A DNA stretch of 64,000 nt from contig CAWDSQ010000025.1 in NCBI GenBank assembly GCA_963804955.1, positions 11,291-75,290 on the forward strand, read 5' to 3'. This stretch comes from an uncultured delta proteobacterium (GTDB taxonomy: Bacteria > Desulfobacterota > WTBG01 > CAIYCZ01 > CAIRTM01). Shown piece after piece: positions 1,296 through 60,610 of this stretch; within the stretch, counting starts at the first letter, position 1, and each line of letters opens with the position of its first letter. The position numbers were made by a program, and so were the translations under genes. The notes below the pieces were generated by a model. It was given only the letters and a program-made list of their open reading frames with translations. It was not told the origin of the DNA and ran no database searches.

Positions 1296-3645
1296 TCACT
1301 TTTTTTTATTCTTGAGCACGGGGGATGCTTGGCGCGAATGGGCTTTTAAAACAGTGCGGATTGTTTTTGCGATTTCTTTAAGGGGCATCGGTTTCAGGAC
1401 AAGGGCCTTGATCCCCAGTTCCTTTACCTTTTCTCTGGATATCTTTTCGCTGAAACCGGTGCACATGATAATGGGCATATCAGGCCTGATTTCCAGAATC
1501 TTTTTGGCCAGAGCGTCGCCGGGCATATGCGGCATGGTCATGTCCGTTATAACAAGATCAAAGCTGTCGGGCTCTTTCTGAAAGGCTTTCAGCGCATCAC
1601 GACCGCTCTGCTTTGCCACTACCCTGTACCCCAGGGAACTCAAACTGCTCCTGCCACACATCGGCCAGAATTTTTTCATCATCCACAAGAAGTATCCGCT
1701 CAGTGCCTGTCTGCACAGGCTTTTCTTCAACGGAGCGTTTCACTGCTGCCGCCTCTATCCGCGGCAGCAGCACATGGAAAATGCTCCCCTTGCCGGGTTT
1801 GCTTTCAACAAGTATTTCTCCGCCATGGCTTTTAATAATGCCGTGCACAACCGCAAGCCCCATGCCCGTTCCCCGGCCCGCCTCCTTTGTCGTGAAAAAC
1901 GGCTCAAAAATACGGGGTATGCATTCCGGGGCAATCCCGGCGCCCGTATCGCGCACAGACAATTTCAGATAGGCCCCGTGGCTCAAGTCGGCATAATCCG
2001 TCGCCTTACGCTCGTCAAGAAAAACAGCGTCCAGGGAAATCTCGATCACGCCGCCGGTCTCTGGCATGGCATGCGCCGCATTGGTGCACAGGTTCATCAG
2101 CACCTGGTAAATGTGCGTCGGGGTTGAATTGGCCATGCATGTCTCATCGTTTATGTGCTGCCGTATTTCAATGGTTGAAGGCAGTGTCGCACGGAGCAGC
2201 TTTACCGACTCTTTGATAATGGAGCTTACCTGCACGGGCTCCCGCTTTTCCATGCCTTTGCGGCTGAAGGCAAGGATCTGCTTGACGAGGTCCCTGGCGC
2301 GCATGGTCGATTTCAATATCTTCTCAAGGTATTTTCTTGCGTGATTTGCTTCAGGGACAGCACCCAGAGACAGTTCCGTATACCCCATAATTGCCGCAAG
2401 TATATTGTTGAAATCATGGGCAATGCCGCCGGCAAGGGTCCCCACGGCCTCAAGCTTCTGCGACTGCCGGAGCTGAGCCTCCAGCTGCTGCCTGGCCTCC
2501 ACAGCCTGCCGCAGGGCGCTGACATCGCGGAGAAAAAAAGAGAACAGCAGCCTGCCCTTGACCATCATGGGGGTCATGCTGATCTCCGCCGGAAATTCGG
2601 TGCCGTCTCTGCGCAGGCAGTTTGCCGTAAACTTGAGCGTCTCGAAAAGGTCGGACTTCTCCGTGATGAGCCAGCGAAACCGGCTGTGCAGGATCTCTCT
2701 CTGCGATGCCGGCACGAGGGTATCGTCCAGGAGTTTGCCGAGAACCGCCGAGCGCTGAAACCCGAAGACCGATTCGGCAGCCGTGTTGAATTCCAGGATA
2801 TGCCCCTCGGAATCAACCGATACGATAGCCTCGTTTGAGGCGTCTAAAAGCGTCATCTTGCGGGCCTCGCTGATACGCAGCTCCCGCTCCCAATCGGCTG
2901 TCTCCTGAAGCGCAGTCGTACCCGCAAGGCCGGCCATACCAGAAGGGCTTCCCGGCTGGCTGGCATCGATGAACGCCATGATGCGCTCGCGGGCATCATG
3001 GCGCATGACGATAAACTGAATGCCGCTGCGGCAGACATTGGTCGAAGCCTGCATGCTCCACATGATCTGGCCGACTACATTCAGCTGGCAGTCCTGGCCG
3101 GGCAGCGTGAACCTGATGTCCAGCTTCGACCCAACATCAAGCAGCATGCGGGTTTTGATGAGCATGCCGCTGTAGGAAAGGTTCAGGGCTGTGCCCTGAA
3201 CCTCGGTTTTGTTCTTGGAGAGATTGATAGACCAGAGGGCGAAGGTGACACCGACTCGGGTGTTGAAACGCGGGGTCACGTTGAGCAGTTGATCCAGGCG
3301 GTTGTTCCACAGGTCGGAATGCAGGGGTATGGGCAGGATCAGGTTCGCGCCGGCATTGATGAGCTCCTTTTCGGCATCGGCAGTCAGTGTCCTGCTGACA
3401 ACCACAATCCCCGCTTCCTTCGTGGAGTCATGACGGCGGATGGAATGCATCAGGGGGTAGATGGGCACTTCGTCAGGCCAGTCGATCACGATAAGGTGGG
3501 GTTTAAACAGAGCGATCGGGTCAAGAGCCGTGTGGATGTCAGAAACCCATTCTCGCATGACGTCTTTGCGCCAGAGCACTGTGCCGCGCAAATCCGCTTT
3601 CAGGTCCTGGTCAGATACGATAAGCACTCTATGCTTGTCTATCAT
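1296..3645 (-). CDS. Hybrid sensor histidine kinase: REC - PilZ - PAS - HisKA - HATPase_c - REC (frame break near 1630-1660 as sequenced)
   Basis: ORFs 1597..3765 and 1296..1730 are in different frames. '...ERILLVDDEKILADV' continues as '...LGYRVVAKQSGRDALKAF..DLVITDMTMPHMPG' (receiver). HisKA 'GIAHDFNNILAAIMGYTEL' and ATPase 'RDTGAGI..GTGMGLAVV' are present, as are PilZ motifs RFNTR and NLSYSG. The likely start is MIDKHRVLIV at 3645. Confidence 0.85.
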
Positions 3646-3891
3646 GGCGCCTTTCTCATGCGGCCCCGGCACGTTTTCCGGCGGAGGAACATGATCACCT
3701 GACTGCGGGACACTCAACCGAACTGCCGGGATACGCTTTTTATACATACCCGCTTGTGGATGCAAGCACTATAGAATGCCGGGCCGGTGCGTGTCAAGGC
3801 AATGTTGCGGCAGAGGAAGAAAATGGGAAGTGGAGGCAGACATCGGTCGGCGTACAAAAACACACCAGGGCATGCCCCCTGTATCAGGCAA

Positions 3892-3921
3892 TAAAAAAGG
3901 CGGGTTGTCGCCAACCCGCCT
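3892..3921 (-). terminator. Rho-independent terminator after the Fe-S/flavin operon
   Basis: The minus strand reads ggcgggttg-gcga-caacccgcc followed by TTTTTTATT. It lies immediately downstream of the stop at 3949. Confidence 0.7.
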
Positions 3922-3948
3922 TCGGTGTTTCTGCTGTAAATCCCTGGC

Positions 3949-5298
3949 TTACTGCGACATACTGTCGCTCAGGGTCACGTTCTGCTGCTTACAGATCTTT
4001 GCCCAGACCTCCGGCCGCTGTGCCTGAATCTCGGCGTCATGCTTGTGAATTTCCTTCCACATCATGCGAGGAGAGGCATACTGGCTCCAGTTGCCGTCCA
4101 TCGTGACGCCATCGAGAAACGTAAACAGGTACTCGACCTCTTCGTCCGTGTAGTACGGAATGAGGGCATAGCCGCTCACCACCTGCATCATGCCGTCATC
4201 ATTGAACTCGAAGGACTCGAGCCATTTTTTCTGATACTCGGGAAAACCGGGCTTGCCGTTCAGCTCCTTCTCGAATGGCATCGACAGCCCAGAGAGCGCA
4301 GTTGATGGAGCCCTGCATCTGCGTTTCAACGAAAGCAGCGGCGTCGCCGATCACGAGCGTATTGCCCTGATAGGGCTTCTTCAAGGGAGCCCATGCCTTG
4401 GTCATGCAGGAATGTTTCTGCTCGATCTTGGCATTCTCGAACATCCAGGCAACCGGGCTCTTCTTGGTGAAGTATTCAAACAGCTCCGTGGGCATCTGTT
4501 TGGGATGGCCGATGAGAATCAAGTCAGCCCAGTCAAAGTGGCCGGCAGGGCCGGTGCCCATCAGCGGAGCGAAGTTCGAGCCGTAGCACAGGCCCCAGAA
4601 GCCGCACCAGCTCTCAGGGTTGTAGTCCTTCACGCCGGACATGTACACGCAAAGCGTCAGGGCTGAGGCAAAATACATACGGCCTTCGTTCATCCCGAGG
4701 CTCTGGGCGACCTGCGCTGTTGCGCCGTCTGCGGCAAGCGAGCTTCTTTGCGTACATTTTGAACTTCTTGCCCTGCTTCACGCATTTCAGCGTTACGCCT
4801 TCGGGCATCGTCAATGGCTTCATAGCAGGTGGTTTCAGGTGATATACTCAACGCCAAGAGCGAGCACCTGGTCAAGCAGCTGCTGCAGGAAATAATTCTT
4901 GTCATATTTCCAGGCAAAGGGACGCCGGTCGGGCCAGGCATAGTGGGCATTGTGCGCCAGATTGCGCGAGTAGTAGAACTTTTCGCGTCACCGGGCACAG
5001 AGCGCCCTTGAATTCAATCTCCCAGCCGTTCTTGACTGACCTGAGTTTATTAACGGAATCCTCGTCGATCCAGCCCTTGCTGTTGAGCGGTTTGCCGGGC
5101 TCAACAATCATGGTGTCGCCGTTATAGTTTTCCTCCAGAATGATGTGCTCGCTGCAGTAGCGGGTCATCTTGGAGATGTCTTTGCGCTTTTCGATGAGCA
5201 CAACCTTCAGGCCTTTTTTTGCGGCACAGTATTGCCGCGTACAGTCCGGCGGGGCCTGCGCCGACGATTGCGATATCATAGTTGTATATAGTGGACAT
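3949..5298 (-). pseudogene. FAD-dependent oxidoreductase (GGR/FixC-like), copy A, broken into 6 frame segments as sequenced
   Basis: ATG at 5298 is preceded by AAGGAGGAAG. The N-terminus MSTIYNYDIAIVGAGPAGLYAA is a dinucleotide-binding motif. Fragments 4902..5279, 4690..4998, 4614..4823, 4199..4693 and 3949..4329 are each in a different frame from their neighbour. Joined, they are collinear with the intact paralogue at 43141..44421 (e.g. 'VIGDAAAFVE' vs 'AIGDAAAYVE', 'SGYALIPYYTDEEVEYLF' vs 'QGYALVPAYEDDEIDYLF'). The first break is in a T7 run at 5214-5220. Confidence 0.75.
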
Positions 5299-5313
5299 TG
5301 CTTCCTCCTTCTC

Positions 5314-6253
5314 TTAGCTTAAAGCCCCAACCGGGCAATAGATTTCACAGGTATGGCAGGCCATGCAGTTCTGCGGATACACCTGTGCATGCTTGTCATA
5401 GCCGCCCTTGTCGTCGAGCTCAAGAGCGCCCACCGGACAGTTCTCCATGCAGGAGCCGCAGCCGAGGCACTTGTCGAGGTCGACCTTGATATACTCGCGG
5501 CAGGAGGGGCACACATAAAAGAACTGGGGGAGTGCGATAGAACTCTTTTGAAAGCTTGGTAAGATGCGGCGCAGGTGCAAAAGGATTGCCGCACTTCTTG
5601 CAGGTCGACAGCTCATAGTCGACCTGCCAGTTCAGCAGCTCGCGCTTCGGGCCGGACTGCTTGCAGCCCTCGGGCGTGCATACCTGGGAGCTTTCAAGAT
5701 CGTTCTTTTTGATGATACCCGTTGGGCAGATAAATGCGCAGGAACCGCAGGCGATGCAGTCCTCGGCGCTCTGCTTGAAGGGGCTTGCAACTTCCCGGTC
5801 CTTGCCGCGGCCTGCAAACTGAATTGCGCCGGCCTTCACGACTTCATTGCAGGCCCGCACGCACTGGCCGCACACCACGCAGTAGTCGTTTTCCTTGCCG
5901 AATTCAGCCGGGCTGTCGGCAACGCCATACTCGGCGGCAAGCTCCTTGACCCGCTTCACATTGGGGCAGCGGGCCAGCAGCAGCTCGATCACGAGCTTCC
6001 GGCCTGCGATCACCCGCGGGCTGTCGGTCTTCACCGCCAGGCCCTCGGCAACCGGATACGTGCACGAGGCTTCAACCGTCGTACGGCCGTTATTGTCTAT
6101 CTCGACTATACACAGGCGGCAGGCCCCGTAGGGCGCAAGAGCGTCGTTGGAGCACAGTGTCGGAATCTCGATCCCTGCTGCTCGCGCGGCCTCAAGCACC
6201 GTAGCGCCTTCCGCTGCCTTTACCTTTTTATTGTTTATCGTCAGTGTCACCAT
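5314..6253 (-). CDS. NuoG/HndD-N-terminal-like Fe-S subunit ([2Fe-2S] plus [4Fe-4S] motifs) with a C-terminal 2x[4Fe-4S] ferredoxin domain; one frame break near 5530-5580
   Basis: MVTLTINNKKVKAAEGATVLEAARAAGIEIPTLCSNDALAPYGACRLC is a [2Fe-2S] N-terminus. CVVCGQCVRAC and CIACGSCAFICP are also present. The second frame (5314..5616) supplies CLGCGSCMENCP...CMACHTCEIYCP. Confidence 0.75.
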
Positions 6254-6285
6254 AGGTCTTACCCTCGTCTTAGAATGTTCTTGTC

Positions 6286-7987
6286 TCAGGTTAACTTCTT
6301 CAGCATGCGTTTTTCCACTTCTTTCGGGAAGTGCTTTATCACGCACAGCAGCGGCACCGCTGCGGTCTTGCCAAGGGCGCAGAATGCCGTATCCTTCATG
6401 GCCTCTGCCATGCGCTTGATAAGCGCCAGCTGCTCTTTCGTGCCGCGGCCATCAGCGATGGTGCCGGCGATTTCCTGAAGCCGCTTGACGCCTTCTCTGC
6501 AGGGAGTACACTTGCCGCAGGACTCATCAGCGAAAAAGTCCGTGAAAAATTTCGCCATATCCACAAGGTCGGCATCCTCATCCATCACCAGCAGTCCGCC
6601 GGAGCCCAGAAGCGTGCCTTCCTTTGCAAGAGCATCATAATCAAGCTTGATCTTCAGGTTTTTGGCAGGCAAAAAGCCGCCCGAGGGTCCGCCGGTCTGA
6701 AAAGCCTTTACCTTCTTGCCCGTGCCCGTACCCTTGCCGAAAGTATCGATAACCTCTTCAACAGTCGTGCCCATGGGCACTTCCACCCAGCAGCTCCGGG
6801 CAACATTACCCGTCAGTGCGACAATCTTCGTGCCCTTGCTGTTCGGAGTGCCGATGCCGGCAAACCACTTGCCGCCGTGATTGACGATGGCGGGGATATT
6901 GGCAAGGGTCTCCAGATTGTTGACCACGGTGGGCTTGTTGAAAAGGCCCTTGTAAACAGGTAGAGGAGGCCGCGGCCGGGGTTCGCCGAAGGAGCCTTCC
7001 AAAGCGTTCAAAAGCGCGGTTTCTTCGCCGCACACATAGGCGCCGCCGCCGCGCTTTACCTTCAGGGTAAAGGAGAAGCCCGAGCCCATAATATTCTTGC
7101 CCAGAAGGCCGGCCTTTTCGGCGGCCTTGATGGCGCAATCGACGCGCTCTGCTGCAAGCACGTAGCGATCATTGAGATAGATATAACCGGCGCTGGCCCC
7201 GACAGCAAAGCCTGCAATGATCATGCCTTCGATCACGCTGTTCGGGTCGCTCTCGATGAAGCTTCTGTGCATGCCGATTTCAGGGTCGCCTTCGCTGCCG
7301 TTGCACACAATGTATTTCTGGTCGCCTTCGGCATTGCGGCATGCCTCCCACTTGATGCCTGCGGGAAAGCCTGCGCCGCCGCGGCCGCGCAGCTTGGAAG
7401 CCTTGACTTCCTTGAGCACGTCTTCGGGCTTGCCGGCAAGCGCCTTGGCAAGGGCTGCGTAGCCGCCCGAGGGCGATATACTCTTCAATGCTGCAGGGGT
7501 CGATCGTGCCGGCATTGCGGCTGACGATTTTCATCTGCTTCTTGAAGAAGTCGAGTTTCTTGTAGTCTTTTTTGTCGGCGGATTTTGCGCCCTTGGTATA
7601 CTTGATGGGCTCCTGGCACACGGCCTGCTGATAGTCGTCATATTTCGCGACGACCAGATCCTCAACAAGCTTACCGGTAGAAAGCGACTTGAGGACATCA
7701 GCAACCTTGTCGGCGGTGACATTGCCGTAGGTGATGCGGGGCTTGCCGGGCTTGATCACTTCCACGATGGGCTCGGCAAAGCACATGCCGTTGCAGCCGA
7801 CGAGCACCACTTCGGCCTTCAGCTTCTGCTTTTTGATTTCATACTTGAGGGCTTCGGCAATCTTTGCCGCTCCCTTGGCAAGGCCACAGGTTGCAGCTCC
7901 CACGGTGATGCGGGTCGTGTCGGGAGAGAGCAGCGCCATGCCTTCCTTTTGAACTTTGGTAAGATCTTCTGCTTTCTGTATTTTCAT
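6286..7987 (-). CDS. NuoF/HndC-like NADH-binding flavoprotein subunit with an N-terminal thioredoxin-like domain; one frame break near 7470-7515
   Basis: 'RGRGGAGFPAGIKWEA' is the FMN/NADH site and 'CGKCTPCREG' the [4Fe-4S] site. The N-terminal ORF 7280..7987 reads through to '...SIEEYIALG' and continues as 'GYAALAKAL' in ORF 6286..7515. Confidence 0.85.
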
Positions 7988-8002
7988 GTGTCTCTCTCCT
8001 TC

Positions 8003-8913
8003 TTAGCCTAAAATTTCCGCAAGTTTGGACTGCGCAGCTGCGGCACTGAACACCTCGCCGTTGATCATCACGGCGGGCGACACGTCGCAGCAGCCCAGAC
8101 AGCGCACTTTCTCGAGCGTGGCCTTGGCGCCGTTGCCGGCGAGCTTGGCCTCGATAGCCTTCACGAGCTTGCCGCCGCCCTTGACCTGACAGCAGGTGCC
8201 GTTGCAAACGGTAATGACATTGGCAGCGGGCTTGTCAAGCCGGAATGCGGCATAGGAGGTTGCAAGGCGGTACAGCGTGCTCATGAAACACGTTTTTCTT
8301 CTGGCTGATGACAATCAGGGCCTGGCGGGGAACATAGCCGAACATGTCCTGCACCGCATGCATGATGGTAATCAGTGTTTCCTGGCCGCCGGGATTTTTT
8401 TCAATAATCTCCTCGACCTTGGTGACGTCGATCTCACCCATGGTGGCATATGCCTTGAGAATGGCCGTTTTAAACGGATCAGGCACAATCTCTTTGACGA
8501 TAGAAACGATATGGTCTTCGGCTAATGGCTCCGCCTGCAGCCTTCTGCAGGGCTATCTGCATGAGCTTGCCGCGAAAAACCTCGCGCATCATATCGGGCA
8601 CTTCCTGCAGCATCCGCTCAAACATGAACTCTGCCTTGCCCTGCCAGTTGGCCGCTGCTGCAGGCGCTGCGGGCTGTGCCCCGCCTGCGGGCTTCATGCC
8701 CAGCGCTGCCATAAGAGCGCTGCGCTGCGGCTCGGGAAGGTCTTCGGATACGAACTTTTTCACCAAATCAGCGCTGACGGGCTGGCCTGCCACCTTGCCT
8801 GCAAGCATTTGCTCAAGCTTGGGCCTGATCGCATCGCGCATGGCATCGGGCACGGCCGACATCAGCTTGTCGAACATTTTTTGTCCATCAGGTAACCACT
8901 TTATATCTGACAT
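8003..8913 (-). CDS. Two tandem PCP-reductase-like (BchB C-terminal-like) domains fused to a NuoE-like [2Fe-2S] domain; two frame breaks (~8500 and ~8290)
   Basis: Internal duplication: 'WLPDGQKMFDKLMSAVPDAMRDAIRPKLEQML' vs 'WQGKAEFMFERMLQEVPDMMREVFRGKLMQIA'. Removing one base near 8500 gives '...GGAISEDHIVSIVKEIVPDPFKTAIL', which reads into the NuoE part 'LITIMHAVQDMFGYVP ... VCNGTCCQVKGG ... CLGCCDVSPAVMING'. Confidence 0.65.
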
Positions 8914-8955
8914 TGTCCCTATCTCCTTTCAGGGATTGGTTCTCTGTTTATTAGA

Positions 8956-9642
8956 TCACTTGGGCTGTACGTTCTCGACCAGCTTGCCGTATTCCTTCTC
9001 AACGGTTGCTGCCGCCTGCGCGATCTCCTTGGCCGCAAGCTTTTCAAAACGCTCCTGGGCCGCCAGATACACATCAAGCTTTTTGGGCTGCAGGGTCTTG
9101 ATCGTAAGGTTATAGAAACCGCTGCCCGCTTCATACAGCGGGAATGCCAGTGTCTCCACAGCCTTAAATCCTACCTTTACCGTATCCTCGGACTCGAACT
9201 TCCAGCCAACCGGGCAGGGGCACAGAATATGAATATAGCTTTTGCCCTCGGTCTCCATGGCTTTCTTGACCTTGTCGAACAGATCAAAGGGATAGCTCGG
9301 GCAGGCCGTCGCCACATACTTATAGCCCTGAGCAATAGCTACCGCCGGCATTTTCTTTACAATCGCGTCCTCAAGCTTGCCGCCTGCTTCATTGTCAAAG
9401 CAGATAACAACTTCGGCCTTGTCTTTCTTCACCCGCATGATCGATACGGCTGATTTCTTGCCGAAAATATCACATGCGGCAGGTGCTTCCCAGGCAGCCT
9501 TCTCAATTGCGCCTTCAATGGCCTTGTACACGTGACGCACGGCCAGAGAAATGCCGCAGCCCGGGCATGCATTGTTCTTCTTGATATCGAAGTACTCTTT
9601 GCACGGCAGGAAATTGGGAACCATCAAACTGTATTTGTCCAT
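8956..9642 (-). CDS. PorB-like (2-oxoacid:ferredoxin oxidoreductase beta-like) protein without a recognisable TPP-binding GDG...NN motif
   Basis: Starts MDKYSLMVPNF at 9642, 3 nt after the upstream stop. The PorB-type 'NNACPGCG' and 'ILCPCPVGW' Cys motifs are present. The region where GDG-x(25-30)-N is expected reads 'CDIFGKKSAVSIMRVKKDKAEVVICFDNEAGG'. Confidence 0.65.
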   Translation of the reverse strand: MDKYSLMVPNFLPCKEYFDIKKNNACPGCGISLAVRHVYKAIEGAIEKAAWEAPAACDIFGKKSAVSIMRVKKDKAEVVICFDNEAGGKLEDAIVKKMPAVAIAQGYKYVATACPSYPFDLFDKVKKAMETEGKSYIHILCPCPVGWKFESEDTVKVGFKAVETLAFPLYEAGSGFYNLTIKTLQPKKLDVYLAAQERFEKLAAKEIAQAAATVEKEYGKLVENVQPK

Positions 9643-9644
9643 GC

Positions 9645-9896
9645 TTAGCCCTCCTGTTCCATGCAGATTACGCCGAACCAGCACTCGCGGTGACAGATGC
9701 CGCAGCCCTTGCACTTTTTCTCGTCGGCCTCAAAATACCCATCGGCAGTCCGGTAAACGGCGCCATCGGGACAATACAAATAACAAATGCCGCAGCGGAT
9801 GCATCGATCCTTGTCCCACTGCGGAAGCCCGCGGCGCTTGTCGCCGGGACTGAAGGGACTGGCCGTGCCCTTATCGAGCAGCGAGCAATCAACCAT
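9645..9896 (-). CDS. PorD-like 2x[4Fe-4S] ferredoxin
   Basis: 'WDKDRCIRCGICYLYCPDGA...EADEKKCKGCGICHRECW'. The likely start is MVDCSLL at 9896. Confidence 0.7.
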   Translation of the reverse strand: MVDCSLLDKGTASPFSPGDKRRGLPQWDKDRCIRCGICYLYCPDGAVYRTADGYFEADEKKCKGCGICHRECWFGVICMEQEG

Positions 9897-10091
9897 CTTG
9901 TGTGTGAATTTTGTCGCTTCCAACACCCTTCTCCTTTCGATAAAATACATCTTAATAAAAATTTTTAGACACCCGGACCGCAACACCTGTCTCGCTGGGG
10001 CACAGTCTCCTTTGCAGCCGGCTGCGCATACTACCCTGCTATCGCCGACAGTACCTGTGGAGACACCATGAGACCCGTTGCCAGGGAAGTC

Positions 10092-10262
10092 TTACACCTC
10101 CAGAGGAGCTTTCATGGGGCAAACCTTCACGCAGGTCTTGCACTCAAGACACAGCTGCGTTTCAACCAGGGCGCGGTCCTTTACGAACTTGATAGCGGTA
10201 CGAGGGCACAAATCAACACAACCGCCGCAGCCAACACACTTTTCTCTATCGATTCTTATCAT
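10092..10262 (-). CDS. Small 2x[4Fe-4S] ferredoxin (56 aa), first gene of the operon
   Basis: Hand translation gives MIRIDREKCVGCGGCVDLCPRTAIKFVKDRALVETQLCLECKTCVKVCPMKAPLEV. The RBS CAGGAGG lies upstream. It falls below the ORF-track length cut-off. Confidence 0.7.
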   Translation of the reverse strand: MIRIDREKCVGCGGCVDLCPRTAIKFVKDRALVETQLCLECKTCVKVCPMKAPLEV

Positions 10263-10714
10263 GTTTGAGCCTCCTGAATAGACATTAACCCATCAACTCA
10301 CAAAAACTTCCAGGCAATGAAATGAATACTCCCTTTCCCGGATAAAAAGCATTGCAACTCAGCATTAAATATTTGGCCGCTAACCTTTTATGGAATTTTG
10401 ATTTATAACCGCTTTCAGCTCAAATTGTCAAGCTCTTTAGAGGAAAACAGGTCTTTGCAGGAGAAAACAGCTATAAAACAAGTTTTGAATATGAATTCAA
10501 ATTCAAAATACTGCTAAAAAAACCGTTCGTCAAGTGGAAAATTGTATTTCAGGAAATATTTCATTCGAAAACACACAGTGAGTTCATTTAACGGGGAACT
10601 ATTCTCGTCAGGCAGCATCTCTAATAAAGCAATAAAGTCATTCTACGTGAGGAGCCTACTACCCCCTGGTCCGGGAGCAAGAGAATTATTGCCCGTTGCC
10701 GGAAAACCAAAGCC

Positions 10715-12619
10715 TTATCGAACAGTCAAGGTCTTGAGCGCTATAGCAAGAACCCGCGGGTCTGCATTATCGGGGAAATGCGCATCAGGCAGTGAAAACT
10801 CCAGAACATTCTCGCCTGTATGTAAAAGCCTCGGTTTAAATGTACTGCGCACATCGATATCCCACCCCTCAAGTACGTGAGCGCCCAGATCATGATTATT
10901 CAGGCGCATGGCGACAGTCTGCCGCCCCAGAGTGCCAAGCCGCAGTACAAGCTCACCTTCAAAGGCGGCTCTGTTCTGTATTCTGAAAAAAATTTTTGGA
11001 AAGTTGCCCAGCGACCACCTGTGCTGTTCTTCAGCATCAGACCAACTGTAAAAAATAATCTGTGGCGAATCATGGCCTATCTGCTCACCGGGATCAATCA
11101 TATAGATTTCATCCAGCACAGAAGCGCTGTTCATTTTAAAAATCGCCACCCATCTTTTGATCGACCAGAGCTGCGCCCGGGTCATCAAAAAAATCCGTTC
11201 AAGCAAAACGCCCACCCGCGCGTTGCGTATCCGGTTTACGCCGTCTAAAACACTTTCGGCATAGCCTCCCGGCAGCGTTCTTGAAAAATGACCGATTCGC
11301 CAGGGCCGCTGTGCCGGAAGCCGTGCAAGAAACGCATCGGTAAGGGCATCCTTATCAATAATATAAACAGCAGGGCCTGCGTAATACCCCAAAAATCCTA
11401 TATTGCTGCGGGTTACCGGCGCACCGCTCCCGGTCTTTTGCAGCGCCCTCCCGTCTTCAGCCCACTGAAAATGAACCTCGAAATCATCTTTTGCCTGTCC
11501 GAAAAGACTGCAGTCTCTGAAGTAAACGGCTCGCTCGTCTGCAATACCGGTGGCGCGTATAAAATCGGAAGCAGTTCCTTTCTGGGGCACTGCATGAACG
11601 TTCAAAATGGCTACAAGGACAAGCGCAGCTACCGGCCCGCCAACTCCTAAAGCTCTCCGCGCAGCAAGCGGCAGCGCAGCGGCTCTGTCTGCGATAATTT
11701 TTGAAATTATTAAAACAGCCGCAACATAATCAGCCGTTAAAAAACGTGCGGACATAAAATCTCCGCCAATCCAGAGCACATAACAACAGCTCAGGGCTAT
11801 ACCGGCTGCAAGAAATCTGCCCGGACCTCCGGCAAAAAAACCAGCAGCACTACCTGCGGCCATGACCACAAGCAGCACCGGCTCAGAAATCCAGACATCT
11901 GAAAAATACACGAAGCCCTGACGCAGATAATCCCCGGCAGGAATGCCCGCCCCGAGTTTTGCATAATAGGTGTTGGGCAGGGGGGCACCATAATATATGG
12001 TGGAAAATACAAGCCAGGCAATCAGCGGCGTCATGCCAAGTATGAAAAATTTTACAGTGCCGGTTTTTCTTTGCTCCCACAAAAGCCACAGAACCCCGGG
12101 CACAATAAGGAAAAGACTGTCCATGCGATTCAGCAGCATGAGACCTGCAAACAGAAATGATCGACCCGCACGGCCGCGATACGCCTCGGCACAAAATAAA
12201 ATCAGTAAAAGATACGACAGTGAATTCTCAAGACCGGACGTGGAAAAGTCCATAAAAGACCGGCTTAAAAGAAGCAGCAGAACGGCAACCACCATCGCGA
12301 TTTCTTCTTTTACAAACCTGCAGAGCGCAAAAACCGCAAAAAAGGTGCAGAGAATCCCGGGCACAACAAGAGTCAGAATGGATTTCTTGAGGATGGCATG
12401 AGCCGCAATCAGCAAAAAAAGCCATAGAGGATGGGTAAACACCTGTACCCGCTCAGCCACATTCCAGCGCAACCCATACCCATGCAGCACATTATCGGCG
12501 ACTCTCAGGCTGATGTAGGCATCATCACAGACCCAGGCCGTGGGTATCACAACACAGCACACCGTGAAGGCGCACAAAATTGAAATTGAGAGATGCCAGT
12601 CGGCTTTCATTTTATACAA
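10715..12619 (-). CDS. Polytopic membrane protein, putative GT-C-type glycosyl/arabinosyltransferase
   Basis: 634 aa. There are many hydrophobic helices in the N-terminal 350 aa and an early 'DDAYISLRVADNVLHGYGLRWNVAERVQVFTHPLW' loop motif typical of GT-C enzymes. The C-terminal domain is soluble. Confidence 0.5.
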   Translation of the reverse strand: MYKMKADWHLSISILCAFTVCCVVIPTAWVCDDAYISLRVADNVLHGYGLRWNVAERVQVFTHPLWLFLLIAAHAILKKSILTLVVPGILCTFFAVFALCRFVKEEIAMVVAVLLLLLSRSFMDFSTSGLENSLSYLLLILFCAEAYRGRAGRSFLFAGLMLLNRMDSLFLIVPGVLWLLWEQRKTGTVKFFILGMTPLIAWLVFSTIYYGAPLPNTYYAKLGAGIPAGDYLRQGFVYFSDVWISEPVLLVVMAAGSAAGFFAGGPGRFLAAGIALSCCYVLWIGGDFMSARFLTADYVAAVLIISKIIADRAAALPLAARRALGVGGPVAALVLVAILNVHAVPQKGTASDFIRATGIADERAVYFRDCSLFGQAKDDFEVHFQWAEDGRALQKTGSGAPVTRSNIGFLGYYAGPAVYIIDKDALTDAFLARLPAQRPWRIGHFSRTLPGGYAESVLDGVNRIRNARVGVLLERIFLMTRAQLWSIKRWVAIFKMNSASVLDEIYMIDPGEQIGHDSPQIIFYSWSDAEEQHRWSLGNFPKIFFRIQNRAAFEGELVLRLGTLGRQTVAMRLNNHDLGAHVLEGWDIDVRSTFKPRLLHTGENVLEFSLPDAHFPDNADPRVLAIALKTLTVR

Positions 12620-12672
12620 TCCGGCAGGGTATCCCAGACAGATCTACCATACGAGGCACAAGCCATTTTGCC

Positions 12673-13122
12673 TCATTTCACTTCAAGGGTTTCAATCTGC
12701 CGCACGCCGCGAGCAATGATATAGCGCTCAACATCAATGCGCACCAGCACGCAGTCAGGCATATCCAGATGGGCACGCAGGTTTTTGTGGCGTTCGAAAT
12801 GGCGTCTTTTGCAGTCTTCAAACTCTTCGGGCAGCACCGTCACCGCCCTGCCTATGCAGGTAACTGCGATGCCATTCGTGAAATCAGGATTTTGCGACGA
12901 ACGGTTGTCAACCATGAGAGAAACTTCAGGGTGCTTCAGCATATTGCGGTATTTGCTTGTAAAGCGGGGTGTTGCGATGAGCAGATGCCGCATATCATCC
13001 GCTGCCGTAACAGCCACGATATTGCAGTACGGGTGGTGGTCGGACTGCGTGGCCAGAATGCCCACAGGCTGTGCTGCAAAAAGGCTGCGCACAATAGTGT
13101 TCAGGTTTTCATCGATGCTCAT
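12673..13122 (-). CDS. Pyridoxamine 5'-phosphate oxidase-like FMN-binding protein
   Basis: 149 aa with a split-barrel-type sequence: 'AAQPVGILATQSDHHPYCNIVAVT...LLIATPRFTSKYRNMLKHPEVSLMVDN'. Confidence 0.65.
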   Translation of the reverse strand: MSIDENLNTIVRSLFAAQPVGILATQSDHHPYCNIVAVTAADDMRHLLIATPRFTSKYRNMLKHPEVSLMVDNRSSQNPDFTNGIAVTCIGRAVTVLPEEFEDCKRRHFERHKNLRAHLDMPDCVLVRIDVERYIIARGVRQIETLEVK

Positions 13123-13146
13123 ACCGGGATCCTCTGCTGTTCAGGT

Positions 13147-14109
13147 TTACACGTGATTCCTCAATTTCAGTTCAATCGGGTGGGGGTTAAGATAATATTG
13201 CCCGCTCAGATATGTCTGGCCGTACTTGCGCACATAATGATTGATGAGCGTCACCGGCACTACAAGCGGCACCAGCTCGCGGCGGTAGCTGTCGATGATC
13301 TCAAGCAGCTCCTGCTTTTCATCGGCGGAAAGATCATTTTTAAAATAGCCCATCATATGCTGCAGCACATTTGTGTGCTTCTTTACCGTGGCCTTAAGCG
13401 CAAGGGCCTCCATGAGAAGCTCGTGATACTGCTCGCAGGTTTGTGCTATGCCGGCTGCCTGCGCATGGGCAACAAGAGGCCCCATGAGCCGGTAGTGCCG
13501 GTTGCTGTGGGCCATGATGAGCAGCTTATGCCGCGTATGAAATTCGACAAGGCCGCCCACGGTTTTTTTCTCCTGCATCGCCCGGCGCAGGCGCCGCAGC
13601 ACGAATATCCGCTCGATGAAATTTTCCCGCAGCACCGGGTCATGCAGCCGGCCCTCCTCCTCAACCGGCAGCAGCGGAAAATGCTCCATGAAAGCACGGG
13701 CAAACATGCCGACGCCGCTGTGCGTCGGCATGCCACCCGCGGCGCTGTACACCTTCACGCGCTCCATGCCGCTGCTGGGGGACCGGCTCTTAAAGATATA
13801 CCCGCAAAGGTCTTCAGCCTCAAGCTCGTGCACGCGCCTGCGCGCCCAGTCTGTCATCCGGCCGGTATAATCTTTTTTTGTTTTAACCGTTAAAAGACGC
13901 GGCGCGGCCGGGTCACCCACCAGCCGCAGCGCTTCGCGGGGTATGCTCATGCCGCATTCCACTTCGGGGCATACGGGCACGTATTCGACATAGGCGCCCA
14001 GCGTGCGGACAAGAAACTCATCCAGCTTATGTCCGCCGTCGTAGCGCACCATGTTGCCAAGCAGGCAGGAGCTGATGCCGAGCCGTATTTTGCCGCCGAA
14101 ATCGTTCAT
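13147..14109 (-). CDS. YbgA-like protein (DUF523 + DUF1722)
   Basis: 'IRLGISSCLLGNMVRYDGGHK...VPVCPEVECGMSIPRE' is DUF523. The C-terminal 'LVEFHTRHKLLIMAHS..YR.MG' is DUF1722. Start MNDFGG at 14109 has GAGGTGA upstream. Confidence 0.75.
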   Translation of the reverse strand: MNDFGGKIRLGISSCLLGNMVRYDGGHKLDEFLVRTLGAYVEYVPVCPEVECGMSIPREALRLVGDPAAPRLLTVKTKKDYTGRMTDWARRRVHELEAEDLCGYIFKSRSPSSGMERVKVYSAAGGMPTHSGVGMFARAFMEHFPLLPVEEEGRLHDPVLRENFIERIFVLRRLRRAMQEKKTVGGLVEFHTRHKLLIMAHSNRHYRLMGPLVAHAQAAGIAQTCEQYHELLMEALALKATVKKHTNVLQHMMGYFKNDLSADEKQELLEIIDSYRRELVPLVVPVTLINHYVRKYGQTYLSGQYYLNPHPIELKLRNHV

Positions 14110-14269
14110 AATGCTCACCTCTTCTGTAAGTATCCGGGCTGACCGCATCCCGTTTCCAAGTCTCCGGGACGGAAACTTTTATGGAGCTTTATTTATTATT
14201 ATTGAAATTTTTTAATTAATAGCAATACTTATTATATATATGATTATCTAACCTTAAAGGAGGTCTGCC

Positions 14270-14806
14270 ATGAACAATGCAGTAAAATGTGCCTGTATTA
14301 CCGCAGCATGCATCCTGATCTCAATTGTTTGCTGGAGCCCGGCTCATGCCGCCCCGCTCAAGGAAGGCGACAAAGCCCCCGACTTCACCCTGAAGCAGCA
14401 GGACGGCAAAGACGTGACCCTGTCAAAAGCATGGGAGAAAAAAATTGTGGTGCTCTATTTCTATCCCATGGATGATACGCCGGGCTGCACAAAAGAGGCC
14501 TGCGCTTTTCGGGATCTCAATCAGGATTTTACAAATGCCGGCGCTGAAATCCTTGGCATCAGCGTCGATGACATGGCCTCCCACAAAAAATTTCAGGAAA
14601 AGCACAAACTCCCCTTTACCCTGCTTGCCGACACCGAGAAAAAAGTCACCGGGCTCTATGATGTCAAAAATTTCATCGGCAAGGCAAAGCGCGTCACCTT
14701 CGTGATAGATTCAAACGGCATTATAAAAAAAATCTATCCCGATGTGGATGTGAGCACCCACGGTCAGGAAGTGCTGACGTATGTGAAAAGCCTCCAAAAG
14801 AAATAG
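14270..14806 (+). CDS. bcp: Secreted thiol peroxidase/peroxiredoxin (Bcp type)
   Basis: Signal peptide, then 'KIVVLYFYPMDDTPGCTKEACAFRD', the peroxidatic Cys motif. Confidence 0.85.
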   Translation: MNNAVKCACITAACILISIVCWSPAHAAPLKEGDKAPDFTLKQQDGKDVTLSKAWEKKIVVLYFYPMDDTPGCTKEACAFRDLNQDFTNAGAEILGISVDDMASHKKFQEKHKLPFTLLADTEKKVTGLYDVKNFIGKAKRVTFVIDSNGIIKKIYPDVDVSTHGQEVLTYVKSLQKK

Positions 14807-14827
14807 CCGGCGCTGGAGGATCCGGAC

Positions 14828-15463
14828 ATGAAAGCTGCCCGGGCTTTTTTGTCTGCATATGCGCTGCTGGCGGTGCTGCTGCACGGAACTGCCGCAGCGC
14901 ATGTGCCCTATATCGAAAACAGGGACTACACCTTTGAGCAGCCATTCCGCGTCAATGGGTCTGTTGAGAACTCCATCGCCGTCTACGGCTGGCTTGAGAG
15001 CGGCAATGATACCGACGTGTACCGCTTGGAAATACCGCGGCCGGCGCGCCTTTACTGCAACGCTCTCGTGCCCGTATGCCCGGCCTACAAGCAGTTCCTG
15101 CCCTGGCTGGCTATTGCCGGTCCCGGGCTTGCAGCGCCCGATGAGCCCCTGCCCTTTGCCCTGCCGCAGGGCTATGGAGCCGTGGTAGTAAAAAACATTG
15201 AGCCGGGAGAGCAGCGGCAGCATTTTTATGAGCCCTTCGGCGGCAAGTCGTATTACACTGCCCCGACATTCGACCAGACCGTTTCACAAACCGGAACATG
15301 GCACATGTATGTATGGGATCCCTCTGGCCGGGGCGGAGACTATGTTGCTGTTATCGGGTTCAAAGAGCGTTTTTCCCTGCTCGATATTCTTCGCGCTCTC
15401 ATCAACACCCCAAAAATCCGCCTTGACCGGGAGCTGCACACCGATTGCAGAAACGCAAACTAA
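14828..15463 (+). CDS. Secreted hypothetical protein
   Basis: Signal peptide MKAARAFLSAYALLAVLLHGTAAA. No family recognised. It is co-oriented with and 22 nt after bcp. Confidence 0.5.
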   Translation: MKAARAFLSAYALLAVLLHGTAAAHVPYIENRDYTFEQPFRVNGSVENSIAVYGWLESGNDTDVYRLEIPRPARLYCNALVPVCPAYKQFLPWLAIAGPGLAAPDEPLPFALPQGYGAVVVKNIEPGEQRQHFYEPFGGKSYYTAPTFDQTVSQTGTWHMYVWDPSGRGGDYVAVIGFKERFSLLDILRALINTPKIRLDRELHTDCRNAN

Positions 15464-15646
15464 CACCTCTGCACAAGCCCGCAGAGCCATGCGCTCCCGT
15501 CCGAACAATCCTCGCATATTTTCTCCGGATTAAGCGCTTGCGATTTTTCATGAGCGGCTATACAATGCTGCGAATTTTTATGTCTCTCTACCTGGGGCAC
15601 GCGCACCAGCCATAAGCTTCCATCGAACACATGTGAAGGGAATGTC

Positions 15647-17170
15647 ATGAATAAAAAAACCGGTTTTGACAATGACCTGTATCTCGAAGAGCAGGCCGGC
15701 GGGATTCTCAAGCGTGTCGACATGTTCGACAATAAGCTGTATCTTGAATTCGGCGGCAAGCTTCTGTTTGACTACCATGCGGCGCGCGTTCTGCCCGGCT
15801 TTGACCCGAATGTCAAAATGAAGCTTCTCCAGAGGCTCAAGGACAGGGCCGATATCGTTCTGTGCATCTATGCCGGAGATATCGAGCGGAAAAAAGTGCG
15901 GGCCGATTTCGGCATCACCTACGACTCCGACGCGCTCAAGCTCATCGACGACCTGAAGGAATGGGGCATCAACATAACGGCCGTTGTCATCACGCGGTTC
16001 GACGATCAGCCTTCGGCGACAATATTCAGAAACAAGCTCGAGCGGCGGGGCGTGCGGGTGTATGTGCACCGCTTCACCAAGGGCTATCCCACGGACATCG
16101 ACCTCATCGTCAGCGACCAGGGCTATGGGGCAAACAGCTACATTGAAACCAGCAAACAGCTGGTGGTTATCACCGGCCCGGGGCCGGGCAGCGGCAAGCT
16201 CGCCACCTGCCTCTCACAGCTCTATCACGAGCATAAGCGCGGCCTTGAGGCGGGATACGCAAAATTCGAGACCTTCCCGGTCTGGAACATGCCGCTGAAG
16301 CATCCCGTCAATATTGCCTATGAGGCGGCCACGGCCGACATCATGGACTTTAATCAGATCGACCCGTTTCACCTTGAAGCCCACGGCAAAACCGCGGTCA
16401 ACTACAACCGCGACGTCGAGGTTTTCCCCGTGGTGAAACGGATTCTCGAGCGCATTACCGGCACCGATTCGATATATAAATCCCCGACCGATATGGGCGT
16501 AAACCGTATCGGCTTTGCCATAACCGATGACAGCGTGGTGCAGGAAGCCTCCCGTCAGGAGCTGATCCGCAGGTTCTTCCGGTACAACTGCGAATATGCC
16601 ATGGGATTCACGAACAAGGAAACAGCCCAGCGGGTTGAGCTGCTCATGAATGAGCTCAATGTGAAGCAGGAGGAGCGCACGGTGGTTGCCGCTGCGCGCC
16701 AGGCAGCCCAGGAGGCGATGCAGAAGCAGAAGGGCAATGCGGGCATCTACTGCGGTGCGGCCATAGACCTTGCCGACGGCGGGCCGCCGGTCACGGGATG
16801 CAACTCGCCCCTCATGCATGCGGCATCGAGCCTGATCATCAATGCAATAAAACAACTGGCAGGCATTCCCGACGCCATACATCTGCTGCCGCAGAACATC
16901 ATGGAATCAATCGGCAATTTCAAGATCAATATTTTGAAGGCGAAAACCGCAAGCCTTGATCTGGAAGAGACCCTCATCGCGCTGAGCATCAGCGCCATGA
17001 CAAACCCGGCGGCCCAGATGGCCATAGACAAGCTGCCCGAGCTGCGGGACTGCGAACTGCATACGACCCATATTCCCACCCCCGGCGATGAGGCGGGCCT
17101 TCGCCGCCTGGGCATCAATGTGACCAGCGACCCTGACTTTTCGACAAAAAATCTTTTTTTCGTCAAATAG
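15647..17170 (+). CDS. UPF0371/DUF1846 family protein
   Basis: 507 aa. The N-terminus 'FDNDLYLEEQ..ILKRV..FDNKLYLEFGGKLLFDYHAARVLPGFDPN' is characteristic of DUF1846. Confidence 0.8.
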   Translation: MNKKTGFDNDLYLEEQAGGILKRVDMFDNKLYLEFGGKLLFDYHAARVLPGFDPNVKMKLLQRLKDRADIVLCIYAGDIERKKVRADFGITYDSDALKLIDDLKEWGINITAVVITRFDDQPSATIFRNKLERRGVRVYVHRFTKGYPTDIDLIVSDQGYGANSYIETSKQLVVITGPGPGSGKLATCLSQLYHEHKRGLEAGYAKFETFPVWNMPLKHPVNIAYEAATADIMDFNQIDPFHLEAHGKTAVNYNRDVEVFPVVKRILERITGTDSIYKSPTDMGVNRIGFAITDDSVVQEASRQELIRRFFRYNCEYAMGFTNKETAQRVELLMNELNVKQEERTVVAAARQAAQEAMQKQKGNAGIYCGAAIDLADGGPPVTGCNSPLMHAASSLIINAIKQLAGIPDAIHLLPQNIMESIGNFKINILKAKTASLDLEETLIALSISAMTNPAAQMAIDKLPELRDCELHTTHIPTPGDEAGLRRLGINVTSDPDFSTKNLFFVK

Positions 17171-17536
17171 CCGGATAGAAAGCAGTTCAAGGGCGCGAAT
17201 CTCGAATCTTTTCAGGTCGCTTTCGGCAAACGTCGCCGTCGTTGGATCGGACTTCAGGTGTTCAATCCACTGCCGCACGATGGCTTCGGAGCTGTATTGA
17301 ATGCACTACCAACCTGTCAAAAATATACGCTGCATACAATCATCCCCTTTCTCCTCTGGTAATGTCCTGCATTAAAGAGAACTTCAACTTACAAACGTAG
17401 CACAAAAGGGTTCTTTTTCAATTGGGTGAAACCGCCTGCCGTGCGACCTTCCTGCCTCTTCGGCGGGGGCGTCGGTGGCGATGAGAGGGGTGCGTTTCAC
17501 ACCCCCAGAGCTATGCCTGGAGGCCGGCCGGAAATC

Positions 17537-25233: not shown

Positions 25234-25827
25234 CTACGGCGTGCAAACCGATTCACATACCGGCTGTCCATCGCCCCCGCAGCCGGGGTCTGCGTCGCAC
25301 ACATCCCCTGTGCCGTCGCTGTCTGCATCCATCTGAAACCTGTTGCACAGGGCCGGGCAGTTGTCAGCACTGTCGGGAAAGTTGTCTCCGTCCGCATCTG
25401 TCTGCCCCTCGCACAATCCCTGGCCGCATCCTCCCCCGCACCCAGGCGTCGGGTCGCACACATCTCCTATGCCATCAGTATCGGCATCAAGCTGCTGCGG
25501 GTTGGCATTGTTCGGGCAATTGTCAAAGTAATTTAAAATACCGTCACCATCCGTATCGCATGACTGCTCACAGGCCGGCTGTCCCTCTGCCCCGCACCCC
25601 GGGTCTGCGTCGCACACATCGCCTGTGCCGTCACTGTCGGCGTCAAGCTGCTCAAGATTGCAGACGGCAGGGCAATTATCAACTGCATCCCGCACATAGT
25701 CGCCATCCGTATCAACCTGCCCCTCACATACCTGCTGGCCGCAGCCCGTGCCGCAGCCGGGTGTTGTGTCGCACACATCGCCGACGCCGTCAGTATCGGC
25801 GTCAAGCTGCTGGGGGTTGGCAATGGC
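25234..25827. repeat. Approximately 590-bp near-identical 3' coding module (copy 1)
   Basis: Roughly 95% identical by eye to 27367-27960. It encodes the TSP3-like repeat domain of both secreted proteins. Confidence 0.9.
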
Positions 25828-31177: not shown

Positions 31178-31366
31178 ATCGCTACTCCTTTTCACAAAAG
31201 GTTGTCTTCAGTATACGTAAAAGAAGCGGGGCAGCCCTTTGACAGGACGTTCCGCTTCCGCCCTCACATTCACACACAATCTAGTGGCTGAACGAAAACC
31301 CTGAACCATGGATTTGTTGGGTTCGCCCTTATGCCCGTACGTCTTCGTAAACATTTGTTTTGCGTA

Positions 31367-60574: not shown

Positions 60575-60610
60575 TGTGACGGCTGTCAAGTTGAATGAAT
60601 GTTTGAGTCG

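Follow-up and report, generated by a model that had tools for sequence, protein, structure and literature searches.

The question raised by this locus is what kind of enzyme is encoded by seven neighbouring genes that bring together NuoEFG-like proteins, PorB/PorD-like proteins and a flavoprotein. The genes lie in a 64,000-nt stretch of DNA, here called the window (contig CAWDSQ010000025.1, positions 11,291 to 75,290, assembly GCA_963804955.1), from an uncultured delta proteobacterium. An earlier note, made from the letters of this DNA, had read them as an operon for an uncharacterised reductase, possibly of the bifurcating type. We found that the operon is a real, conserved seven-gene unit. 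In its working, it appears to come closest to an NADH-oxidising module of the HoxEFU/NuoEFG type that is wired to a ferredoxin-dependent flavoprotein of the geranylgeranyl reductase (GGR) type. Judged from the encoded sequences, it misses defining features of the Bfu family, of the 2-oxoacid:ferredoxin oxidoreductases (OFOR) and of bona fide GGRs.

A conserved seven-gene operon

The seven genes are co-oriented on the minus strand from 10262 to 3949, a Shine-Dalgarno-like motif precedes each of them, and an intrinsic terminator closes the operon. The features are, in order of transcription:

10092–10262, minus strand: Fd56, a 56-aa 2x[4Fe-4S] ferredoxin; intact; Pfam Fer4 and dicluster families
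9645–9923, minus strand: 2x[4Fe-4S] ferredoxin subunit of the PorD/KorD family, about 92 aa, TTG start; intact; TIGR02179
8956–9642, minus strand: truncated PorB-like protein, 228 aa, without the thiamine pyrophosphate (TPP) motif; intact; homology to OFOR beta subunits
8003–8913, minus strand: NuoE/HoxE-like [2Fe-2S] subunit, about 301 aa once corrected, whose N-terminal part is a two-fold helical repeat; two frame breaks
6286–7987, minus strand: NuoF-like subunit for flavin mononucleotide (FMN) and NADH, 566 aa once corrected, with a thioredoxin-like domain at the N-terminus; one frame break
5314–6253, minus strand: NuoG-N-terminal/HoxU-like subunit, about 311 aa; one frame break; Pfam Fer2_4 and Fer4 dicluster
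3949–5298, minus strand: flavin adenine dinucleotide (FAD) oxidoreductase of the GGR superfamily, about 446–449 aa; six frame breaks
3896–3923, minus strand: intrinsic terminator at the operon end, with a 12-pair stem (7 G-C), a 4-nt loop and a T-run

The gene order and most domain calls of the earlier note were borne out, and the cofactor domains of the operon proteins are backed by Pfam and NCBIfam. The tight packing described there also stood, with gaps of 2, 42, 15, 32 and 15 nt from the PorD-like gene through the FAD gene. The sole large gap, between Fd56 and the PorD-like gene, measured about 165 nt and not the roughly 190 nt first given. A terminator had been placed at 3892–3921, and we located its G+C-rich 12-bp hairpin and T-run at 3923–3896. 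Domain searches of the operon agreed with the earlier reading that it holds no gene for a hydrogenase H-cluster, formate dehydrogenase, PorA or PorG. Rfam, searched with 3700–10800 (E≤1), gave no sign of a riboswitch or another known RNA, either in the leader or within the operon.

We scanned metagenome contigs with an alignment of the PorB-like protein, which gave 80 loci; the counts that follow are taken over the loci long enough to test. PorD adjoins the PorB-like gene in 65 of 66 loci and Fd56 lies upstream in 46 of 55, while NuoE, NuoF and NuoG follow in 55 of 55, 40 of 41 and 33 of 35, respectively. The unusual combination of genes that had marked this module at the outset is conserved, since the FAD gene stands directly after NuoG in 25/27 of these metagenome loci. 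The search for the same gene order elsewhere, proposed with the first reading, returned about 35 public loci in which Fd–PorD-like–PorB-like–NuoE–NuoF–NuoG–FAD is strictly syntenic. Neither these loci nor the operon contain a PorA or PorG gene, and genes for the electron-transfer flavoprotein (EtfAB) were found neither in the operon nor in the surveyed loci. The module is intact in the loci that we labelled L001, L002, L003, L085, L086, L087 and L090, and L086 carries two copies in tandem (4530–10287 and 10476–17454). Of these, L001, L002 and L003 are metagenome-assembled genomes (MAGs) of Desulfobacterota/Thermodesulfobacteriota and L085 is labelled Myxococcota; the relatives carrying taxon labels belong to Desulfobacterota, Myxococcota and Spirochaetota MAGs. 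Fd56 is 84–96% identical across most orthologous loci. The gene content, the cofactor motifs, the homologies and this strict synteny are direct observations.

The FAD family is rare, with 118 representatives (50% clustering) at E≤1e-30 among 1.84 billion proteins. A scan of genome contigs with the FAD alignment, whose patterns were overly generic, gave at least six true relatives and is not a taxonomic census.

The exceptions to the full order are informative with respect to the way the system is assembled. Three loci (L160, L162 and L163) have Fd-PorD-PorB-NuoE-NuoF-NuoG with no FAD gene adjacent, and in L157 and L158 the cluster ends after NuoF. A second, divergent module with the order Fd-FAD'-PorD-PorB-NuoE-NuoF was observed in L130, L167, L170 and L086; its FAD' protein is 24–26% identical to the first FAD protein, which points to a small family of such systems that differ in flavoprotein specificity. 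Finally, FAD homologues at about 40% identity (L088 and L089) are followed only by a ferredoxin of 55–56 aa. Because FAD-only, FAD-less and FAD'-first loci all occur, the data fit two recurring units joined by ferredoxin and usually combined in one operon, namely a flavoprotein and a PorDB-NuoEFG block, each accompanied by a small ferredoxin.

The combination had not been recognised as a described enzyme when it was first noted, and we found no described equivalent of the subunit set in PDB sequences (2026 copy) or in the literature searched, the coverage of which was incomplete. The literature on Bfu gene clusters, on GGR with NuoF and on NuoEFG with an FAD oxidoreductase in Desulfobacterota likewise yielded no equivalent, an absence that is not proof.

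Frame breaks in the window copy

Ten frame breaks interrupt the operon in the window. Two fall in the NuoE-like gene (~8522 and ~8288), one in the NuoF-like gene (~7469), one in the NuoG-like gene (~5538) and six in the FAD gene (~5227, 4986, 4839–4843, 4808, 4739 and 4278). Compared with intact relatives (L083, 93% nucleotide identity; L092, 91% over 6.5 kb; L002, 71%), all ten are 1-nt insertions in the window and none is a deletion. None of the ten lies within a long homopolymer run. The NuoE-like insertions were visible against both L002 and L092, and the Pfam 2Fe-2S_thioredx match of this gene is spread over two frames. After deletion of the inserted bases, no in-frame stop was left, and the stitched FAD protein has intact homologues of 440–446 aa with up to 92% identity (P0001, 92%).

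The breaks could be real, in which case the operon would be a recently inactivated pseudogene cluster in this genome. Indeed, break density is about 9x higher in the operon (10 in 6.3 kb versus about 9–11 candidates in the remaining 57.7 kb), which is unexplained, and the FAD gene alone holds six breaks. Moreover, the ratio of nonsynonymous to synonymous substitution rates (dN/dS) of the FAD gene is higher against L083 (0.22) than in deeper comparisons (0.045). However, these ratios, as well as the value of 0.10 for the NuoG-like gene against L083, are far under 1, and the lesions consist of ten +1 insertions with no deletion, nonsense mutation or larger lesion, whereas gene decay in bacteria is biased to deletions. 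Furthermore, housekeeping genes are frame-split elsewhere in the window, each appearing as two overlapping open reading frames (ORFs) with consecutive parts of one Pfam model:

30421–31195, minus strand: triosephosphate isomerase (tpiA), frame-split
31439–32642, minus strand: phosphoglycerate kinase (pgk), frame-split
58402–59569, minus strand: acyl-CoA dehydrogenase, frame-split
59593–60589, minus strand: FabH, frame-split

Since genes for housekeeping functions, tpiA and pgk among them, are split as well and are unlikely to be truly disrupted, the ten breaks are probably insertion-type consensus errors of the assembly. We thus consider a pseudogene cluster improbable, and the dead operon envisaged in the earlier note for the case of genuine breaks fits ten +1 insertions whose removal leaves clean frames less well than assembly errors do.

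Further indel candidates in the window were seen at ~1625 and at 25802–25878. A hybrid histidine kinase at 1597–3765 apparently extends into 1296–1730 in another frame. Indel errors thus appear to be spread over many genes of the window, at roughly one ninth of the density seen in the operon.

The NADH-oxidising subunits and the question of bifurcation

The NuoE-, NuoF- and NuoG-N-terminal-like subunits were present as first described, including the motifs RGRGGAGFPAG and CGKCTPCREG and the extra 2x[4Fe-4S] domain of the NuoG-like protein. The NuoE-like protein matches Pfam 2Fe-2S_thioredx, and the window copy has all four of its Cys ligands. Its N-terminal ~150 aa form an internal two-fold helical repeat, for which the previous designation as two PCP-reductase-like units had to be given up: neither the whole protein nor the single repeats matched PCP_red (PF08369) in Pfam at E≤10. 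The repeat gave only a faint match to DUF2621 and no match among PDB sequences. In L001 (6037–8981), L090 (9735–12675) and L085 (6005–7996), a copy of this repeat has also been acquired at the N-terminus of the NuoF-like protein.

The NuoF-like protein contains Complex1_51K, SLBB and NADH_4Fe-4S domains and carries the two motifs named above. The NuoG-like protein combines an N1b-type [2Fe-2S] site, 2x[4Fe-4S], a conserved CxxC...CxxC site and the extra C-terminal 2x[4Fe-4S] domain, with matches to Fer2_4 and to Fer4 dicluster families; a survey of its Cys patterns revealed no motif for a His-ligated (N5-type) cluster. In NCBIfam, the best matches were HoxE for the NuoE-like protein and the HoxU/FeFe-A6 N-terminus for the NuoG-like protein. 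Since all NuoE/F/G equivalog scores are below the curated cut-offs, the trio is, by its sequence, a divergent subfamily of the NuoEFG/HoxEFU-type NADH-oxidising modules.

With the HoxEFU diaphorase of NAD-linked hydrogenases and the NuoEFG N-module of complex I, the trio shares the FMN/NADH domain with the N3 cluster, the NuoE [2Fe-2S] cluster and the NuoG [2Fe-2S] and [4Fe-4S] clusters. It also shares the Tyr in the GAY[IV]CGEETAL loop, which fits plain NADH oxidation feeding an Fe-S wire. In contrast to these modules, the operon adds the NuoE helical repeat, the NuoF thioredoxin-like domain, the NuoG Cys4 site and the C-terminal 2x[4Fe-4S] domain, and it has no N5-type motif, hydrogenase or membrane arm.

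A bifurcating function, as the earlier note had it, would place the operon near the Bfu family. Bfu enzymes are defined by an invariant BfuBC core, and the data set behind this definition required a 4Fe-4S ferredoxin-type domain on the B subunit (Schut et al. 2022, PMC9304861). The C-terminal domain of BfuB (B3/B4, two [4Fe-4S] clusters) forms the ferredoxin binding site (PMC9304861; PMC12018979). Features of the Bfu pocket are the AFM motif, Phe281, the GGPSG loop and Asp195 (Tsi NfnB numbering); AFM and Phe281 are present in Bfu enzymes and absent in non-bifurcating homologues, and the proposed bifurcating flavobicluster consists of FMN, B1 and C1 (Xiao et al. 2025, PMC12018979).

Similarly to the Bfu family (HydABC, NfnABC, Wor-Bfu and the predicted Por-Bfu), the operon has a NuoE/NuoF/NuoG-like trio that would feed a variable terminal module. 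The best PDB matches of the NuoF-like protein are all Bfu B subunits, at 447–511 bits: NfnB (9n5u), NiFe-HydB (7t2r), StnB (8oh5), HydB (7q4v and 7p5h) and WorB (9mqx). [quoted passage not shown]

However, defining features of Bfu enzymes are missing. The PDB alignments end about 75–80 residues short of the Bfu B C-termini because the NuoF-like protein has no B3/B4 ferredoxin domain; indeed, it ends right after the NADH_4Fe-4S domain in all eight copies compared (the window and seven others). The Zn/B2 hinge is lacking as well. In the same eight copies, the segment CNGSEGDPE[IV][GA][ML]H has I[GA]M for AFM and Ser for Asp195, and GGGAY[IV]CGEETAL has Tyr for Phe281, as in non-bifurcating NuoF. 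Moreover, the Cys ligands of C1 are lost in L001 and L090, in which all other module genes are kept, and the Cys residues of the NuoF thioredoxin-like domain are lost in L001, L085 and L090 (GSNGMS for GCNGMC), the module being otherwise retained. The Por part of the operon consists of a delta and a TPP-less beta subunit only, and a terminal GGR-like flavoprotein is not among the listed Bfu partners. Since C1 is dispensable in L001 and L090, bifurcation of the Bfu type is disfavoured as the function of the module, and we did not retain that part of the earlier reading.

A new flavin-based bifurcating or confurcating complex could still be built from these parts. Bfu-derived NuoEF would oxidise NADH and send the high-potential electron to the GGR-like FAD and its substrate; the low-potential branch would end at Fd56, by way of either the PorB/PorD remnant or the NuoG-like subunit's additional 2x[4Fe-4S] domain, in replacement of the BfuB C-terminal domain, and in syntrophs the complex could run in reverse. 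The B-subunit matches, the GGPSG loop and the thioredoxin-like domain are in line with such a complex, and so is the NuoG-like protein, whose best PDB matches are the HydA1 N-terminus and the small, 247-aa BfuA of Wor-Bfu (9mqx_A, 4e-40), a solved relative (PMC12318220). The PorB/PorD remnant could derive from the Por-Bfu class (BfuABC with PorABDG), which has been predicted and is uncharacterised (Schut et al., PMC9304861). A ferredoxin is co-encoded in the operon. With about 300 mV separating NADH from a C=C couple, enough energy could be available to reduce ferredoxin, as in Bcd-Etf and CarCDE. Against such a complex stand the absent B3/B4 domain and hinge, the three pocket replacements, the C1 losses in otherwise conserved modules and the distant FAD homologues, which are simple ferredoxin clients. 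Taken together, we hold it to be unlikely. Its most specific form would be a new bifurcating class that has lost the canonical ferredoxin domain and uses TPP-less PorB/PorD as the low-potential branch and the GGR-like flavoprotein as the high-potential branch; hydrogenation of a C=C bond, unactivated or in a lipid, and reduction of ferredoxin would both be coupled to the oxidation of NADH, possibly in reverse in syntrophs. As one joint claim, this is quite doubtful.

The PorB/PorD pair

The 56-aa ferredoxin, the PorD-like ferredoxin and the PorB-like protein, all named in the first reading, are backed by Pfam, TIGR02179 and NCBIfam/PDB matches, respectively. An orthologue of the PorD-like protein scored 68.4 bits against TIGR02179 and passed its cut-off of 60.05, and both CxxCxxCxxxC motifs are conserved. 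Residues ~96–216 of the PorB-like protein match the beta subunits of oxalate oxidoreductase (OOR; 5c4i_C, 1e-24) and of pyruvate:ferredoxin oxidoreductase (PFOR; 9bt4_C, 4e-22). The NCBIfam PorB model was matched at 9e-37 and 127 bits, far under its cut-off of 405 and over the C-terminal half only, and no Pfam family, including the TPP domain, matched the protein. Its AlphaFold2 (AF2) model (pLDDT 81) aligned in Foldseek with OOR and PFOR beta subunits (TMq 0.52–0.58, TMt ~0.4).

Across the PorB-like family, the CxxC near the N-terminus, a DNE triplet and the PCP motif are retained, with C26, C29 and C143 invariant. The TPP motif has no GDG, and the Y-x-NTGGQ loop is absent; about 80 beta-subunit residues are missing, residues 42–77 standing in for residues 40–131 of OOR beta. 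By these sequence features, the protein is an OFOR beta subunit without a TPP site. Of the four canonical ligands of the proximal [4Fe-4S] cluster, three can be located, so the protein probably retains this cluster. The pair thus shares with PFOR and OOR a delta-type 2x[4Fe-4S] subunit above the TIGR02179 cut-off and a beta C-terminal domain with the CxxC and PCP cluster motifs and a matching fold. It differs from them in the absence of alpha and gamma subunits and in a beta subunit that lacks the GDG stretch for TPP as well as the Y-x-NTGGQ loop. With no alpha or gamma subunit and no TPP motif, 2-oxoacid chemistry by the PorB/PorD pair is therefore not expected.

Related PorD-PorB-NuoE-NuoF clusters occur in L160 (6853–10343) and L162 (14512–16115); their PorB-like protein is longer, at 307 aa, and their NuoE is short and lacks the N-terminal repeat. 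Such long-PorB clusters may stand midway between complete Por-Bfu enzymes and the TPP-less remnant.

The GGR-like flavoprotein

The product of the last gene had been described as a GGR-like FAD oxidoreductase. It is 449 aa long and its closest relative is indeed GGR. The best PDB fold match of its AF2 model (pLDDT 88) was the Thermoplasma acidophilum GGR (TaGGR, Ta0516, 3oz2; E 8.5e-22, TM 0.65/0.72). Halogenases and monooxygenases of the p-hydroxybenzoate hydroxylase (PHBH) fold, SaGGR (3atq; TM 0.58) and FixC (7koe_C; TM 0.57) came next. In a profile search, the protein aligned with 3oz2 end to end, at an identity to GGRs of 13–16%. Its GAGPAG corresponds to the GxGxxG motif for FAD, K[YF]DK aligns with KFDK of TaGGR (the RxxFD site, of which the Arg is not conserved), and [LV]xxGDAAAF lies at LVGD of TaGGR (the LxGD site). 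In the alignment, the invariant Cys48 of the family coincides with the Cys within ...VRCGEGL of TaGGR, the residue called Cys47 in GGRs (PMC10821996). Against TIGR02032, the protein scored 67.2 bits, below the cut-off of 158.8.

Similarly to the archaeal GGRs, the protein has the PHBH-type fold, GxGxxG, the Cys47 equivalent and a small ferredoxin gene at its locus. A ferredoxin gene as neighbour is typical of archaeal GGRs and their paralogues (PMC10821996). The analogy with the dedicated ferredoxin of archaeal GGRs, drawn when the operon was first read, gained weight from the ~40%-identity FAD homologues, which keep only the 55–56-aa ferredoxin adjacent. Unlike the archaeal enzymes, the operon's protein is only 13–16% identical to them, has another cavity segment, belongs to bacterial anaerobes and has a whole NADH-oxidising module attached. 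It is a GGR-superfamily paralogue with a different pocket and not a bona fide GGR.

The presence of FixC among the top profile and fold matches (7koe_C; E 6e-12, TM 0.57) raises the alternative of a quinone reductase resembling FixCX or the electron-transfer flavoprotein:quinone oxidoreductase (ETF-QO). In such a system, the NuoEFG-like proteins would take the place of EtfAB as the entry point for NADH, and the flavoprotein with the ferredoxin would reduce menaquinone or saturate its prenyl tail, the latter in the manner of MenJ. The FixCX flavoprotein is likewise paired with a small ferredoxin. However, GGR 3oz2 is the better match, being full-length with the higher TM scores (0.65/0.72) and the lower E value (8.5e-22 versus 6.5e-17), while 7koe_C aligns fully at the N-terminus only. 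The invariant Cys aligns to GGR Cys47, a position at which FixC presumably has no Cys, and EtfAB genes are absent from the operon and the surveyed loci. A quinone reductase is accordingly an explanation to which we give little credence.

Proposed path of electrons

From these observations, we infer a physical complex, a direction of electron flow, a role for PorB/PorD and a chemistry. The operon would encode a modular, soluble system for electron supply together with its client reductase, non-bifurcating, fed by NADH and mediated by ferredoxin. This is the reading that we favour, tentatively. NADH would be oxidised at the FMN of the NuoF-like subunit, and the electrons would pass through the N3-type [4Fe-4S] cluster to the NuoG-like subunit, with its one [2Fe-2S] and four [4Fe-4S] clusters. 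They would then reach the OFOR remnant, made of the PorD-like 2x[4Fe-4S] protein and the TPP-less PorB-like protein with probably one [4Fe-4S] cluster. This remnant would be the ferredoxin-reactive end that reduces the co-encoded Fd56. Fd56, or the wire directly, would reduce the FAD of the GGR-superfamily flavoprotein, which may hydrogenate a C=C or similar bond of a probably hydrophobic substrate. The exergonic last reduction would pull the slightly uphill step from NADH to ferredoxin, so that bifurcation of the Bfu type would not be needed. A linear supply chain is favoured because of the C1 loss in L001 and L090 and because of the two-unit modularity. The earlier proposal that the catalytic end is the GGR/FixC-like flavoprotein, fed by Fe-S proteins, agrees with this chain.

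Several points weigh against a linear chain. By overall similarity, the NuoF-like protein is closest to bifurcating Bfu B subunits (NfnB, NiFe-HydB, StnB and HydB, at ~450–510 bits), and electron transfer from NADH to a 2x[4Fe-4S] ferredoxin is uphill, a situation usually solved by bifurcation. One of the four canonical [4Fe-4S] ligands of the PorB-like protein cannot be placed. The cavity motif of GGRs, PxxYxWxFP (PMC10821996), is absent from the flavoprotein, whose aligned segment reads CYGSN[LF]APL[ML]GTGPAG, so that C=C hydrogenation is an analogy only. The subunit contacts and the direction of the electrons are read from homology and gene order, and the density of frame breaks in the window copy adds a further difficulty.

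If this reading is true, the operon would be a new build of a soluble redox enzyme from familiar parts. PorB, the catalytic subunit of a thiamine enzyme, would have been stripped of its cofactor site and kept with PorD as an electron adaptor that joins a NuoEFG-type NADH module to a ferredoxin-dependent flavoprotein. The flavoprotein would represent a branch of the GGR superfamily that is bacterial and differs in its substrate pocket, hinting at an unknown hydrogenation or desaturation in anaerobes. The variants without the NuoE cluster, together with the missing B3/B4 domain, offer a test case for which Bfu features bifurcation needs. The system, with its unusual re-use of PFOR subunits, is robustly conserved, experimentally tractable and uncharacterised.

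Promoter, operator and neighbouring genes

A candidate promoter with an operator was found 5' of the first ferredoxin gene:

10365–10432, minus strand: candidate promoter and operator, with a -35 box CTTGACA (10432–10426), a -10 box TATAAA (10407–10402) and a palindrome (10389–10365)

The -10 box lies 18 nt past the CTTGACA box. In the window, the palindrome is imperfect, AAAAGGTTAGCGGCCAAATATTTAA, with the core TTAG-N4-C[CT]AA; its counterpart in L003 is the perfect TTAGGCATCTAA. The -35 box and TTAG-N4-C[CT]AA are kept 5' of the first ferredoxin gene in L001 (~4500–4610), L002 (~4840–4950), L003 (~3850–3960) and L090 (~8320–8430). Because the -35 box, the -10 box and the palindrome are conserved in these four loci, the palindrome is suggested to be a putative operator of a shared repressor, and the promoter to mark Fd56 as the first gene of the operon.

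No convincing sigma-54 promoter was detected in the upstream region. No regulator gene was found to be conserved next to the module: TetR genes lie near L001, L086 and L007 but are not orthologues, and the window has none; a 205-aa ORF in L003 had no BLASTP match to the three TetR proteins. The histidine kinases beside the operon in the window and beside L090 have a generic similarity of 27% only. Flanking metabolic genes gave no clue to the substrate, as the contexts differ between loci.

Upstream of the operon, a 634-aa multi-pass membrane protein without a Pfam match at E≤1e-5 is encoded at 10715–12619, and an AT-rich intergenic region of 450 nt (10263–10714) separates it from the first ferredoxin gene. 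Just 3' of the module, two loci carry an adjacent pair of Fe_bilin_red genes (ferredoxin-dependent bilin reductase family), namely L087 (11864–13373) and the P0210 contig (JGI 3300042731; 8633–10142). One of these pairs is on the strand of the module and comes after a 549-aa unknown protein. As a lead only, these neighbours could possibly point to a link with bilin or tetrapyrrole reduction, or simply to a supply of reduced ferredoxin.

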